Below, in pieces: positions 1 to 42,047 of a DNA stretch of 43,038 bases. The notes under the pieces were generated by a model. The model ran no database searches. It was given only the letters and a program-made list of their open reading frames with translations, and was not told the origin of the DNA. Made by a program: the position numbers and the translations under genes. The stretch spans positions 1 through 43,038 of the forward strand of contig JBBTAK010000011.1 of assembly GCA_038044245.1 (NCBI GenBank), given 5' to 3'. This DNA comes from Nanobdellota archaeon. GTDB lineage: Archaea > Nanobdellota > Nanobdellia > Pacearchaeales > GW2011-AR1. The first letter of the stretch is position 1; each line of letters starts with the position of its first letter.

Positions 1-1908
1 ATTTCACAGAAAAACTTTTTGGATTTCTTAAAAAAAGGCGAGATCTACAGGAAAGACTTTCCAACACTCTGGTGTCCTGAATGCCAGACAGCGATAGCCC
101 AGGCAGAATTGGAAGACAGGGAGATTCCAAGCACTTTTTCTTTCATTAAGTTTCATGCAGGAGGACACGAACTTCTGATAGCAACCACAAGGCCTGAGTT
201 GATAGAAGCATGCGTTGCAATATTTGTTAATCCAAAAGACAGCAGGTACAAAGGCCTGAAAGGAAAAAACGCAAAGGTTCCTCTATTTAATTTTGAAGTT
301 CCAATAATTGCAGACCCCAGTGCAGATCCTGAAAAAGGGACAGGGGCTATGATGATTTGTTCTTATGGGGATAAGTATGATATTGATGCAGTTGTAAGGC
401 ACAAACTTAAGCCAAGAATAGTTCTTGACAAACAAGGAAGAATGACTAATGGGAGATATAAGGGACTAAAAGTAAAAGAGGCAAGAAAAAAAATTCTTGA
501 AGACCTTAAAAATTCCGGCTTGGTCATTAAACAAGAGCATATAACTCATGCAGTTAATGTACATGACAAATGCGGGACAGAGATAGAATTTCTTCCTACA
601 GAGCAATGGTTCATAAAAATTCTTGACAAAAAAAAGATATGGCTTTCTCAGGGAAAGAAGATAAAATGGCACCCGGAACATATGAGAAAGAGGTATGAAA
701 ATTGGGTTAATGGGCTTAATTGGGACTGGAATATCTCAAGAGACAGGCATTTTGGAGTTCCGATTCCTGTTTGGGAATGCAAAAAATGTAAAGATATTAT
801 TCCGGCAGAAGAAAAAGAGTTGCCTGTTGATCCAATGCAAACAGCAAAAAAATGCAAAAAATGCGGTGCAGAAGCTGTTGGTGAATCCAAAGTCCTTGAT
901 ACCTGGGCAACATCTTCTCTGACTCCCCAGATAATATCTTCTCTTGTTGGAAACAAAGTCAAGATTCCCCTTTCTTTAAGGCCGCAGGCACACGATATAA
1001 TAAGAACATGGGCATTTTACACAATAGTCAAGTCTTATCTCATTGAAAAGAAATTTCCATGGGAAAATATAATGATTTCCGGGTTTGTCACCCTCGAAGG
1101 CGAGAAAATGTCAAAATCAAAAGGAAATGTTGTTGATCCAAAAGAGATAATAAATAATTATGGTGCAGATGCCTTGAGATTCTGGGCAGCTGGTTCAAAG
1201 CTTGGTGAAGACATGGAATACCAGGAAAAAGATGTTCAGGCAGGAAAAAGATTCGTAACAAAACTATGGAATGCTTCTAACTTCGTTTTTATGAATCTTA
1301 AGGATTACAAGCCGAAGAAACCCAAAAAACTTGAAAAGCTGGATGAATTATTTTTGAATGAATTGAACAGGGTTATTTACACGACAACAGGCAGATTTGT
1401 AGAATATAATTATTCAAAAGCCAGATCAGACACAGAAGAATTTTTTTGGAAAGATTTCTGCGATAACTATCTTGAAATTGTAAAATGGAGAGTTTACAAT
1501 GGAAACAAGCAGGAAAAAGAATCTGCATTTTACACATTATACACATCGCTTTTGACAATATTGAAGCTTATAGCTCCAATAACACCTTTCATAACAGAGC
1601 ATATTTATCAGGAACACTTTAAGAAAAATGAAAAAGAAAAAAGTATTCATATTTCTGAATGGCCAAAAGTAGAGAAACAAATATCTAAAGAATCTAGGCA
1701 TAAAATTGGATGGAATAAACTAAAAGATTTAATCTCAAAAATAAGAAAAGTAAAATCAGATAATAAAAAACCTATGAATTCTGAGATCATTCTTGGAGTT
1801 GATAAAAAGGCTTATTCTTATCTAAAAGAAGTTTTACAAGACCTTAAACATGTTACCAATGCTAAAGAAATTAAATCAGGAAAAGAGTTCAAGGTAGAAT
1901 TCATATAA
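1..1908 (+). CDS. valS: Valyl-tRNA synthetase, C-terminal ~630 aa (5' end lies outside the window)
   Basis: Frame 1 is open from nt 1; the listed start at 19 is an internal TTG. Class I aaRS KMSKSKGN motif. Editing-domain block ATTRPEL...GTGAMMICSYGDKYD is typical of archaeal ValRS. Also WCPECQTAIAQAELE and DWNISRDRHFGVPIPVW. Confidence 0.9.
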   Translation: MSQKNFLDFLKKGEIYRKDFPTLWCPECQTAIAQAELEDREIPSTFSFIKFHAGGHELLIATTRPELIEACVAIFVNPKDSRYKGLKGKNAKVPLFNFEVPIIADPSADPEKGTGAMMICSYGDKYDIDAVVRHKLKPRIVLDKQGRMTNGRYKGLKVKEARKKILEDLKNSGLVIKQEHITHAVNVHDKCGTEIEFLPTEQWFIKILDKKKIWLSQGKKIKWHPEHMRKRYENWVNGLNWDWNISRDRHFGVPIPVWECKKCKDIIPAEEKELPVDPMQTAKKCKKCGAEAVGESKVLDTWATSSLTPQIISSLVGNKVKIPLSLRPQAHDIIRTWAFYTIVKSYLIEKKFPWENIMISGFVTLEGEKMSKSKGNVVDPKEIINNYGADALRFWAAGSKLGEDMEYQEKDVQAGKRFVTKLWNASNFVFMNLKDYKPKKPKKLEKLDELFLNELNRVIYTTTGRFVEYNYSKARSDTEEFFWKDFCDNYLEIVKWRVYNGNKQEKESAFYTLYTSLLTILKLIAPITPFITEHIYQEHFKKNEKEKSIHISEWPKVEKQISKESRHKIGWNKLKDLISKIRKVKSDNKKPMNSEIILGVDKKAYSYLKEVLQDLKHVTNAKEIKSGKEFKVEFI

Positions 1909-18088: not shown

Positions 18089-19006
18089 TTATTTAGAATT
18101 AATAAAATGTTTCATTGCAGGAAGAACTCTGCTAAACAGGTATTCGACACCTTGTCTAGGCGTCATTTCTGTAATATTATCACTAGGCTTTACTTCTCCA
18201 AAACCACTTAAAGTTTGCAAAATTGGGTGATATCCAGAGTGCGTTGTTTCGAAAACCTTAAACAACTCTCCAATAGCCTTATCTTTTTTCTCTTCTTGCC
18301 CAAAAGCATTAAGACCTTGAGAGAAAGGAATTGTGCTTTTTCTCTTGGAAAGTTCAACCATTTTTGGATAATACTCGCCCTTTGTTAATCTCTGCCAGGG
18401 GGTTCTTGTTTCTTGATTCATACATCCGTCTGTGTATGGATTATCAAATTGCCAAATTCCTTTTTTATTTTTTAGCCACCTAAGAGGGAAGCTAATTTCT
18501 TCAGATAAACACTCCTTTTCTGTAACCTCTTGAACAGCAGGAACAGGAAGAAAATCTCTGAAAGCATATGAGCCTATATGCAATCTTCCAAAATTTGAAA
18601 ATTTCCAACCTCTTCTGTCAACTTTTGATGCAGGACCAAAAGATATTCTTGCAACAAGCCCCCTGTCTTTTCCATGCAAATATCTTTTAGAACAATATCC
18701 TAAGTCATCACTATGCACGTCTCTTACATATAAAACTGCCCCAATATCATCATGTCCAGCCTTAGAAGTCCACATGAATGCAGGAATTTTAGTATCAAGA
18801 ACTCGAACCCCTCTTTTAATGGCTTGCTCAACAAGAGAAGGTAAACCGGAAACATTTATTCTTGCAAATTGCCAAAAACCTAATAGACTATCGGGAGCAA
18901 GCTGTGCAAATCTCTCAGAAGATGGCTCATGTGCAAAGCCCATCTCGTTATGCATATCCTCTTTTAATACTGCATGACTATCTATTGGCGCAACTGCAAT
19001 TTCCAT
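18089..19006 (-). CDS. Hypothetical soluble protein, Trp/His-rich, unknown family
   Basis: 305-aa ORF with no TM segment. Composition is like the core genes. It lies 27 nt upstream of the 188-aa membrane protein gene. I recognise no motif. Confidence 0.6.
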   Translation of the reverse strand: MEIAVAPIDSHAVLKEDMHNEMGFAHEPSSERFAQLAPDSLLGFWQFARINVSGLPSLVEQAIKRGVRVLDTKIPAFMWTSKAGHDDIGAVLYVRDVHSDDLGYCSKRYLHGKDRGLVARISFGPASKVDRRGWKFSNFGRLHIGSYAFRDFLPVPAVQEVTEKECLSEEISFPLRWLKNKKGIWQFDNPYTDGCMNQETRTPWQRLTKGEYYPKMVELSKRKSTIPFSQGLNAFGQEEKKDKAIGELFKVFETTHSGYHPILQTLSGFGEVKPSDNITEMTPRQGVEYLFSRVLPAMKHFINSK

Positions 19007-38830: not shown

Positions 38831-38870
38831 CTGCAGTTAAGAAATCCCCCACTTATAAATTTTTAAGACA

Positions 38871-39041
38871 CGCCCCGACCGAGATTCGAACTCGGGTCAC
38901 GGCCGTTCCCTAAGGACAAAGACTGCATTGAGATGCTAGACCTATTCTCTCAACGAGATTGGGTCGTCTTTGTGTAAAACGCCGGCTCGAAAGCCGTCAT
39001 TTTTGAGAGGGCCGCATTCTTGGCCTCTGAACTATCGGGGC
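38871..39041 (-). tRNA. tRNA-Glu (CUC) with a 98-nt intron at 37/38
   Basis: 5' exon 39041-39004: GCCCCGAUAGUUCAGAGGCCAAGAAUGCGGCCCUCUCA. 3' exon 38905-38871: CGGCCGUGACCCGAGUUCGAAUCUCGGUCGGGGCG. 7-bp acceptor stem, all stems pair, GUUCGAAUC T-loop. Intron 38906-39003. Confidence 0.88.
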
Positions 39042-39115
39042 AGACATTCTTCAAACTTCTTTAATAGAGCGAGAAAAAGGTATTAAAAACTTGTTATTTG
39101 ATTGGGCTTTGAAAA

Positions 39116-40543: not shown

Positions 40544-40616
40544 TAGCCTCGCCAGGATTCGAACCTGGGTTACAGCCTCCAGAGGGCTGTGTCCGTGACC
40601 GCTAGACGACGAGGCT
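40544..40616 (-). tRNA. tRNA-Gln (CUG), intron-less
   Basis: AGCCUCGUCGUCUAGCGGUCACGGACACAGCCCUCUGGAGGCUGUAACCCAGGUUCGAAUCCUGGCGAGGCUA. Perfect 7-bp acceptor stem with the A1-U72 pair typical of archaeal tRNA-Gln. Anticodon loop CUCUGGA. Confidence 0.88.
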
Positions 40617-41519
40617 TTTTAACCTTTCTTTGTGCTTATTGTTTGAAAAACCAATCTCTTTTAAATATTTCTTTATCTCCTCTTGTCTTGATATATAAAA
40701 TTGTCTATTATTGATCAATTTTGATGGGTGATATCCCAAATCTAGAAATGCCTTTCTTACGTCATTTAATAAAGTAATATTATGGTTTGTAAAATTTATT
40801 CTAATAAGTCTATAATCTCGTTTTGACATTCGAAAAATAGAGCCATCTGTATCAATTAGGCCTCTTAAGCAAACTCTTAAAAATTGCTTATCTTCAAAAA
40901 TCCATCTGGGAATTGTTGATTGATTTTTTATTTTATTTCCTGGTTTTATTCCCATGGATATAAACAAATTAATAATTTCTTTACTATAGATGTCTAAAAA
41001 CCTTTCATTATATTTTGGTCTTTTTTGTTCAACTGGTTTAAGATTAAATACCTCTTCTACTAATTTTTTTAAGTAATTTATATGATAGTCTTTATCTTTT
41101 TCTAAATCCCCTGCTATTTTTATACAATAAACTCCACCCTTTTTTCCTCTTTTATAAGAACACACATGTCCATCTCCCAAAACTGCTCCTATGAACTCTG
41201 CCAATCTTTCATCAAATTCTATTTTAGGTAATCTTTTAGTAGAACCCTCTGAATTAAGTCCCCCTTTTGATCTGCCCCAGTTATTATCTAATCTTTCTGA
41301 TATAAATTTATCAAAATTCTCATTTGCAAAAAGACAAAGTTTTTTGTAGAGTTCCCCGTCCAAGAGTCTCATTTCATTTTTTAACTCATAATAAAGATAT
41401 TTTTCATTGATACCTAATTTATTAGCTAATTTTTCCCAAGTAGAATTGCCTTTTGCTTTAAGGATTAGTTCTTTTTGCTTACCTTCTTTTAATTTAATTC
41501 TCATCACCTTCAAAATCAA
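40602..41519 (-). CDS. Free-standing double-motif LAGLIDADG homing endonuclease (probable ATG at 41504)
   Basis: LAGLIDADG motifs FIGAVLGDGHV and CLRGLIDTDGSI. The listed start is a TTG at 41519. The last five codons plus the TAG (40602-40616) are the first 15 nt of tRNA-Gln. AT-rich. Confidence 0.85.
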   Translation of the reverse strand: MILKVMRIKLKEGKQKELILKAKGNSTWEKLANKLGINEKYLYYELKNEMRLLDGELYKKLCLFANENFDKFISERLDNNWGRSKGGLNSEGSTKRLPKIEFDERLAEFIGAVLGDGHVCSYKRGKKGGVYCIKIAGDLEKDKDYHINYLKKLVEEVFNLKPVEQKRPKYNERFLDIYSKEIINLFISMGIKPGNKIKNQSTIPRWIFEDKQFLRVCLRGLIDTDGSIFRMSKRDYRLIRINFTNHNITLLNDVRKAFLDLGYHPSKLINNRQFYISRQEEIKKYLKEIGFSNNKHKERLKSLVV

Positions 41520-41523
41520 ATTT

Positions 41524-41533
41524 AATTTATATT
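41524..41533 (-). promoter_or_regulatory. TATA-like box for the second LAGLIDADG gene
   Basis: Minus strand reads AATATAAATT, 20-29 nt upstream of the ATG at 41504. Confidence 0.35.
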
Positions 41534-41562
41534 ACTTTTTGACCACTGCGCCGTGATTAAGG

Positions 41563-41570
41563 TTTATATC
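41563..41570 (+). promoter_or_regulatory. TATA box for the 41592 hydrolase gene
   Basis: TTTATATC lies 22-29 nt upstream of the ATG at 41592. Confidence 0.35.
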
Positions 41571-41591: not shown

Positions 41592-42047
41592 ATGTTATGG
41601 AGAACCCATCTCGCGATAGCCCTTGCAGTCGCGCTTTATTTCTCAAATCATGTTGACAAGCCGCTGATTTTCATTCCTGTCGTGTTAATTTCCAGTTTTT
41701 TTCCGGATATAGACTCAAGATTTTCCCACATAGGCAAAAAGGCTATATTCAGGCCAGTGCAATGGACAGCTTCCCACAGGGGAATTATTCATAGCTACAC
41801 ACTCTGCATTCTTCTTTCATTTCTTATTGCCCTTGTTTATCCTGTTCTCGCCCTTCCTTTTTTCCTGGGATATGTCTCCCATCTTTTTGCAGACAGCTTT
41901 ACTTCTCAGGGAATAAGACCATTCTGGCCCCTCAAGGCTGTTTCCAGAGGAGCAGTAACCACGGGAGGAAAAACAGATATGGTTATTTTTTACACTTTTG
42001 TTATTATAGATTTAGTATTATTAGGAACAATACTTTATTCATGGTAG
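41592..42047 (+). CDS. Membrane-bound metal-dependent hydrolase (YdjM/DUF457-like)
   Basis: MLWRTHLAIALAV..., FFPDIDSRFSHIG, HRGIIHS, SHLFADSFT. His/Asp-rich motifs alternate with TM helices. Confidence 0.7.
   Translation: MLWRTHLAIALAVALYFSNHVDKPLIFIPVVLISSFFPDIDSRFSHIGKKAIFRPVQWTASHRGIIHSYTLCILLSFLIALVYPVLALPFFLGYVSHLFADSFTSQGIRPFWPLKAVSRGAVTTGGKTDMVIFYTFVIIDLVLLGTILYSW

Follow-up and report, generated by a model that had tools for sequence, protein, structure and literature searches.

The window analyzed here is a 43,038-nucleotide (nt) stretch of contig JBBTAK010000011.1 from a Nanobdellota archaeon, a DPANN-type archaeon whose genome assembly (536 kb, 37% GC) is 83% complete. Our study concerns a place in this window where an open reading frame (ORF) for a LAGLIDADG homing endonuclease runs into a tRNA-Gln(CUG) gene on the same strand. 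Called from a TTG codon, the ORF spans 40602..41519 on the minus strand and encodes 305 amino acids (aa); the conserved start MRIKLK places the initiation codon at an ATG (41504-41502), giving a protein of 300 aa plus a TAG stop (40602..41504), supported by Pfam, 404 homologues, AlphaFold and Foldseek. The tRNA-Gln(CUG) gene (40544..40616, minus strand) is complete according to ARAGORN and Rfam (RF00005, 56.8 bits, model positions 1-71), with an acceptor stem (AGCCUCG/CGAGGCU) forming 7/7 pairs, discriminator A73 and no encoded CCA, and it is the sole CUG isoacceptor gene in the assembly. The two genes share 15 nt (40602..40616): the ORF ends ...K S L V V TAG, its final five codons, AGC CTC GTC GTC TAG, being nt 1-15 of the tRNA and the stop codon (40604-40602) nt 13-15. 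In 200-nt intervals, GC content is 0.23-0.355 within the ORF and 0.38-0.47 in the flanks, with 28% for the ORF overall against about 40% for its surroundings. A first-pass annotation made from the sequence had described the ORF as extending into the first 15 nt of the tRNA, as more AT-rich than both flanks, and as a free-standing gene outside any intron or intein; ORF calling and the tRNA models, the GC profile, and the Pfam match together with a downstream tRNA that is complete by itself agree with this description. Its statement that no spacer is left for a tRNA promoter also holds, as such a spacer is missing in all 30 loci that we compared.

The protein is a predicted single-chain, two-motif LAGLIDADG homing endonuclease of the I-DmoI type with an N-terminal helix-turn-helix domain. 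It matches Pfam LAGLIDADG_3 (PF14528; E 2e-9, 38 bits against a cut-off of 22.5), and an AlphaFold model built from 33 homologues (mean predicted local distance difference test score 90.3) comprises an N-terminal helical domain (residues 1-72), a flexible linker and a two-lobed, two-motif core (residues 99-299). AlphaFold, Foldseek and Pfam agree on the pseudo-symmetric double-lobe alpha-beta-beta-alpha-beta-beta-alpha fold; the best Foldseek matches are I-Tsp061I (E 2e-8, template modelling (TM) score 0.74) and I-DmoI (TM 0.70), along with intein endonuclease domains, with WhiA appearing at rank 22. A sequence search of the PDB returned no LAGLIDADG match, just a weak TetR-like helix-turn-helix match to residues 21-56. 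The two LAGLIDADG helices end in ...AVLGDGH (D111, codon 41174-41172) and ...LIDTDGS (D220, codon 40847-40845), and G110-D111-G112 and D218-T219-D220-G221 are invariant in 33 homologues, so that each helix carries its conserved acidic residue. Its homologues are labelled Pacearchaeota, Woesearchaeota or Nanoarchaeota. Another ORF in the window, 18089-19006, which is also 305 aa long, bears no relation to the 300-aa LAGLIDADG protein.

The 5' part of the tRNA occurs twice at this locus. The downstream copy is nt 1-22 of the complete tRNA itself (40595..40616, minus strand) and ends in GGTCA(C), which the comparison of 27 loci and congeneric genomes points to as the insertion point in the D-loop. 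The upstream copy, AATCACGGCGCAGTGGTCAA (41539..41558, minus strand), appears to be a decayed remnant of the original tRNA 5' part; it ends in ...CAGTGGTCAA and lies directly upstream of the ORF's own promoter. This promoter, a B recognition element (BRE) and TATA box (AAAGTAATATAAATT, 41524..41538, minus strand), is conserved in sequence and stands about 20 nt upstream of the ATG, a distance that fits a leaderless mRNA; the TATA box that had been placed at 41524-41533 in the first-pass annotation is real, and its position is conserved in relatives. On the other side of the remnant lies the TATA box (41562..41570) of a divergent YdjM-family gene (41592-42047, plus strand), recognized by comparison with empty and occupied congeneric sites. 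Since the remnant abuts the YdjM TATA box in the window and in the congeneric genome G109, the old tRNA promoter has been deleted there.

The arrangement recurs in relatives. In two of these, taken from public genomes, L008 (65% identity) and L009 (55%), the ORF likewise ends inside a full tRNA-Gln(CUG), and a second copy of the first ~22 nt of the tRNA (AGCCCC.TAGT.TAG.GGTCAA) lies just upstream of the ORF promoter. When 301 genomes of the same order were searched, additional full-length relatives (38-65% identity) came to light. In nearly all loci the upstream parts follow the order of old tRNA promoter, 5' remnant ending in GGTCAA, BRE/TATA, spacer and ATG, and the remnant end is 33-39 nt from the ATG in 23 of the 27 loci analyzed. 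Against the 3' acceptor strand, the downstream copy forms 7/7 pairs in 27/27 loci (at least 6/7 had been required, and every locus scored 7) and co-varies with its own D-stem. The upstream copy forms 7/7 pairs in 9 loci, 6/7 in 1, and at most 5/7 in 17, including the window, where it forms 5/7; intact upstream copies are found at L008, L013, L014, L023, L028 and L046. At these loci the part of the tRNA that was displaced has thus been made good by a cassette-borne copy and persists as a remnant, the pattern of a gene-end replacement of the mORF type. As the upstream copy decays and the downstream copy always pairs, the former is best understood as a decaying pseudo-fragment, and the reading of the whole insert as one giant intron fails. 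A 3' tRNA remnant was not found downstream of the tRNAs in the 27 loci, which implies that the entering unit consisted of promoter, ORF and tRNA nt 1-21, and that it was completed by nt 22-73 that were either resident or co-converted.

We therefore regard it as very probable, on these sequence comparisons, that the window holds a cassette inserted in the tRNA-Gln(CUG) gene that rebuilds the 5' part of that gene. The cassette would have entered after GGTCA at about nt 21, where the D-loop meets the 3' strand of the D-stem, bringing a BRE/TATA promoter of its own and an ORF of the leaderless type whose last codons are fused to replacement tRNA nt 1-21. Replacement nt 1-21 and resident nt 22-73 would together make a complete tRNA, and the displaced original 5' piece would stay upstream and decay, its promoter being lost in this genome. 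Two other kinds of insertion were considered and rejected. A cassette carrying a whole tRNA would leave two remnants and is ruled out by the missing 3' remnant. An integrase-type att duplication, as known from SSV and pNOB8, does not match an insert of 0.94 kb that encodes the LAGLIDADG protein only, flanked by a repeat that is the tRNA 5' part and whose copies are non-identical.

The family behaves as expected of a mobile element. Wherever a relative has kept its ORF intact (29/29), this ORF runs into a same-strand tRNA, and reaching the tRNA 5' end so consistently cannot be chance; absence of the overlap from relatives, named beforehand as a possible refutation, is thus not what was observed. 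Four kinds of tRNA gene are targeted, namely tRNA-Gln(CUG), Gln(UUG), Glu(CUC) and Glu(UUC). Most overlaps measure 2-3, 10-11 or 15-16 nt, and the ORF is almost invariably closed by a TAG that falls on tRNA nt -1..2, 8-10 or 13-15; in three cases the reading frame continues deeper into the tRNA or passes through it. Across 40 congeneric genomes the gene order is YdjM-family gene, tRNA-Gln(CUG), EF-Tu-domain-2-like gene and tRNA-Glu(CUC), and a search for empty sites, as proposed in the first-pass annotation, yielded five clean ones (L043, L045, L050, L053 and L059), where the YdjM ATG and the tRNA +1 are 87-121 nt apart and a normal tRNA TATA box ends at about -25. At the same locus, G303 (L046) carries an endonuclease gene 49% identical to that of the window, with the old promoter and an intact remnant, AGCCCCATAGTACAGTGGTCAAG, in place, and G109 (L063) retains a broken endonuclease gene in a 348-nt gap, the pieces being 65-71% identical to the window's. 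A single orthologous site is thus polymorphic within the genus (5 empty, 1 occupied, 1 decayed). An orthologue of the window enzyme was not found in the 22 congeners searched. In three further congeners, G304, G267 and G091 (L058, L060 and L061), the gap between YdjM and tRNA-Gln is 136-207 nt, longer than in the clean empty sites, and holds motifs that look like the remnant (..ACAGTCAAGAAACC..) or like the Y-L-K element described below (AAATATTTAAAAGAG); lost cassettes may have left these gaps as scars.

A maximum-likelihood tree arranges the enzymes according to their tRNA target, with one change each to account for Glu(CUC), Glu(UUC) and Gln(UUG) and two for Gln(CUG), and not according to host: the genera g7, g24, g116 and g1 each hold several clades (three or four in several genera), and the two enzymes in the window's genus fall in different clades. 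The phylogeny is thus incongruent with the hosts and the distribution patchy. The acceptor stem of the window tRNA (AGCCTCG/CGAGGCT) is unlike that of all congeneric tRNA-Gln(CUG) genes and equal to that of the occupied locus L015, from another family, as would fit a tRNA that was co-converted as a whole. Sites in empty, occupied and decayed states, together with clades that track their target, form the picture expected of invasion, decay and loss of a homing endonuclease gene. The predicted course of spread is that the enzyme cuts the D-arm DNA of unoccupied tRNA-Gln and tRNA-Glu genes, and that repair from an occupied allele copies the cassette. The earlier suggestion that the tRNA 5' end forms part of a homing site is thereby retained, with the correction that the gene does not merely abut the tRNA but is inserted at its D-loop. 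As a separate observation, the 10-kb contig that carries the 55%-identical cassette of L009 (CAYHWM010000031.1), whose remnant is nearly intact, belongs to a genome bin labelled Methanosarcinales, either through mis-binning or through transfer beyond DPANN.

How a tRNA gene rebuilt in this way is expressed is a separate matter. A matrix built from 22 tRNA promoters of the same genome (consensus AAACTTTTAAA) describes a 14-nt site; in roughly half of these promoters, 21-23 nt separate its end from +1. At this distance tRNA-Gln(CUG) has no promoter, and coding sequence stands there instead. When the 944 nt upstream of the tRNA were scanned, the two top matches proved to be the two nearest to it. 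The best, ACAATTTTATATAT (40691..40704, minus strand; score 10.9), lies 74 nt from +1 and reaches a score found about once per 8.6 kb genome-wide; its conservation was looked for in relatives and not found. The second-best, AATATTTAAAAGAG (40656..40669, minus strand; score 7.4), has a core, TATTTAAAA (40667-40659), that coincides with the codons for Y-L-K and ends 42 nt from +1. The Y/F-L-K codons are conserved, and TTA-AAA is used in 13 of the 16 orthologues with L-K at this place, where the codon usage of the individual ORFs would predict 6.0, which is only a hint as the orthologues are related; one of the orthologues with TTA-AAA uses TTA for just 14% of its leucines.

A further line of evidence comes from three genomes of one genus (L088-L090) that have lost the endonuclease gene and were found when tRNA-Gln(UUG) genes were scanned for D-loop inserts. 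The last ~72 nt of the ORF persist there, ~90% conserved both mutually and with occupied relatives; the conservation begins at AAGTTTTTTAAAT and extends to the tRNA, the sequence further upstream is unrelated, and at L090 just 14 nt separate the stop codon of the upstream gene from the AAGTTTTTTAAAT element. Retention of the stretch from element to tRNA after loss of the protein is as would be expected of a promoter and leader. The sense strand of the ORF also contains six T5 runs. Such runs are archaeal termination signals, and read-through from the endonuclease promoter should accordingly be limited. One T5 run, at 40646-40650 (minus strand), sits between the candidate internal TATA box and the tRNA and could end read-through just before the tRNA. 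Taken together, these comparisons incline us to the view that a promoter buried in the ORF drives tRNA-Gln(CUG). The tRNA would be transcribed mainly from the Y-L-K TATA element 42 nt upstream of +1, and possibly also from the element at -74, as a transcript with a short leader removed by RNase P. Read-through from the endonuclease promoter may add tRNA, and both routes may operate.

The full account, in which a homing-endonuclease cassette inserts in and rebuilds the tRNA gene, spreads by homing, and leaves the tRNA to be expressed from within the ORF, seems to us reasonably likely, and several points weigh against it. The cleavage activity, recognition site and cut position assumed for the enzyme are putative. 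The candidate TATA element is 42-57 nt from +1 across the family, with variable spacing, compared with mostly ~21-23 nt at ordinary sites; TTTAAA is likely to arise in AT-rich coding DNA, and the orthologues in which it recurs are not independent samples. The loci that retain the stretch without the enzyme represent one genus in the Gln(UUG) clade, whose enzymes are only ~40-45% identical to that of the window. Moreover, the rebuilt tRNA gene again has an intact D-arm, and the enzyme's own host allele should therefore be a target. A C9 or altered D-stem pairs are found in many endonuclease-linked tRNAs, though not in all, and also in some empty alleles.

In this connection, 11 of the endonuclease-linked tRNAs are interrupted by a short intron that follows GGTCAA directly, precisely where the cassette inserts, and forms a GGTC/GAC(U/C) helix; a D-loop intron there is compatible with immunity of the target site. 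Ten tRNA-Gln(UUG) genes with a D-loop intron occur in the 301 genomes, seven with an endonuclease gene or its tail upstream and three with none, the loci being phylogenetically clumped. The non-canonical introns themselves, of 26-37 nt after GGTCAA in the D-loop of tRNA-Gln or tRNA-Glu genes, were noted at L016, L022, L027-L034 and L037, and also at L080, L082 and L086. One might go further and propose that such cassettes drive the disruption of archaeal tRNA genes, with D-loop introns as immunity devices or by-products that split the target, orphan DPANN 5' fragments as scars, and the 3' end of the ORF exapted as a tRNA promoter that outlives the endonuclease. As a joint claim we regard this as speculative and put it forward tentatively.

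The closest alternative keeps the same cassette and denies the tRNA a promoter of its own, so that RNase P and RNase Z would process it from the ~1-kb endonuclease transcript initiated at 41524-41538 only. The lack of any ORF-tRNA spacer, the deletion of the old tRNA promoter in the window, the strong conservation of the cassette promoter, and the distance of the TATA-like element from +1, greater than in normal tRNA promoters, are all in keeping with this route. Yet L088-L090 keep the segment from element to tRNA with neither endonuclease gene nor cassette promoter, TTA-AAA is conserved beyond codon usage, and the T5 runs should hinder a full-length transcript. Such a route would also make the sole tRNA-Gln(CUG) gene hang on transcription of a selfish gene, and RNase P, cutting the read-through RNA at the tRNA +1, would strip the mRNA of its stop codon, making tRNA maturation and a full-length endonuclease mRNA mutually exclusive. 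We consider exclusive processing from the mRNA rather unlikely; of the two expression routes offered in the first-pass annotation, comparison favors the buried promoter over obligatory maturation from the 3' end of the mRNA.

Two further explanations change the nature of the insert itself. Small introns at exactly the same D-loop position in 11 relatives, and the related endonucleases carried by archaeal rRNA introns, might suggest a giant bulge-helix-bulge intron of ~940 nt, with 41539-41558 as an exon 1 spliced to nt 22-73 and the downstream nt 1-21 as intronic sequence. This is contradicted for the window, where the upstream piece pairs poorly, as it does in most of the 27 loci. By contrast, the copy downstream always pairs fully and co-varies with its D-stem, and the downstream tRNA is complete alone and needs no second exon; we give this reading practically no credence. 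It is also conceivable that the protein is a domesticated, non-mobile, DNA-binding regulator of the adjacent tRNA gene, combining helix-turn-helix and LAGLIDADG domains in the manner of WhiA, and not an active endonuclease. The N-terminal helix-turn-helix domain, the presence of WhiA among the structural matches, and the conservation of the D-loop half of the remnant (TAGTGGTCAA) beside the promoter speak for such a role. Both catalytic Asp residues are invariant, however, the distribution is patchy with empty and decayed congeneric sites, the clades track target and not host, and the ORF has 28% GC against 37% for the genome, making domestication very improbable. The preferred reading remains that of an inserted cassette that rebuilds its target.

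The same design is found in a paralogous clade that occupies tRNA-Thr, where a remnant ending in ...GTAGCTCAG is followed by ACACAAAATATATAAAT and by an ORF running into tRNA-Thr; more distant members of this clade show the sequence of remnant, ORF and full tRNA in tRNA-Thr(GGU). Two paralogues are present in the window's own genome. A 325-aa LAGLIDADG protein (contig C17, 14220-15375; L002/L065; 32% identity) has a rearranged form, its gene being flanked on one side by a complete tRNA-Thr(CGU) and on the other by a stray 3' piece of a tRNA (GGTCGGGGGTTCAAATCCCTCTGCAGGCT) whose acceptor strand matches tRNA-Thr(CGU) of the congener L067. A 5' half matching this 3' piece, as a split tRNA or giant intron would call for, was sought and not found, and that interpretation was set aside, the relatives showing the remnant and replacement design. 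A third, shorter paralogue of ~220 aa (contig C10, 4200-5050; L003) has no N-terminal domain, and a T-arm-like piece (GTCGGGGGTTCAAT) lies just upstream of it on the opposite strand, adjoining a TATA-rich stretch. Elsewhere in the window, tRNA-Glu(CUC) (38870-39042, minus strand) has a ~98-nt intron at the canonical position; the tRNA-Glu(CUC) genes at L019, L020, L024 and L025, which are targets of a sister clade of this endonuclease, have introns of ~100 nt.

If our interpretation is right, homing endonuclease genes would have a third means, besides introns and inteins, of residing in an essential RNA gene without harm, in which the short gene segment that is displaced is duplicated and the copy fused to the cassette's own reading frame. 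It would offer a concrete origin, open to testing, for orphan tRNA fragments and oddly placed introns, both long debated in archaeal tRNA genes, and a probable case of protein codons that also act as promoter for the gene that follows and persist once the protein has gone. In annotating DPANN genomes, upstream tRNA-like fragments and tRNAs that seem to lack a promoter should be interpreted accordingly, and the enzymes would constitute a pool of natural meganucleases with predicted targets in tRNA genes.

Our literature search found no published description of an endonuclease cassette that replaces the 5' part of a tRNA gene, but several known systems share parts of the design. I-Tsp061I and I-DmoI (PDB 2dch and 2vs7) have the closest folds and are likewise single-chain, two-motif archaeal enzymes that target stable-RNA genes; they sit in bulge-helix-bulge rRNA introns that are spliced out, whereas the window enzyme is not intronic, has an additional helix-turn-helix domain, and is associated with a segment duplication. 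SegB of phage T4 (PMC2330249) is also free-standing, recognizes conserved DNA of a tRNA gene, as we infer for the window enzyme, needs no intron for homing, and brings about co-conversion of tRNA genes nearby. It differs in belonging to the GIY-YIG family, in using a T-arm motif, in lying between the tRNA genes of a cluster, and in neither duplicating nor rebuilding a tRNA segment. The geometry of this locus is matched by tRNA-Thr(GGU) of Caldiarchaeum subterraneum (Sugahara et al. 2012, PMC3293823), with a 5' fragment, a 1.8-kb insertion, and a same-strand ORF immediately upstream of a complete tRNA. That tRNA gained an intron, and its insertion was read as a pNOB8-type or transposable element with a putative recombinase, the paper making no mention of a LAGLIDADG or homing endonuclease, an overlap between ORF and tRNA, or a promoter analysis. 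The mobile endonuclease ORFs of fungal mitochondria, in atp6 of Allomyces macrogynus and in Glomus/Rhizophagus (mORFs; PMC3630166), share the strategy itself, in that a free-standing gene inserts, substitutes the displaced part, and leaves a pseudo-fragment nearby. The fungal elements, however, replace the 3' (C-terminal) end of organelle protein genes. In our case the replaced part is the first 21 nt of an archaeal tRNA gene on the chromosome, and the endonuclease ORF overlaps this RNA gene and apparently also supplies its promoter.

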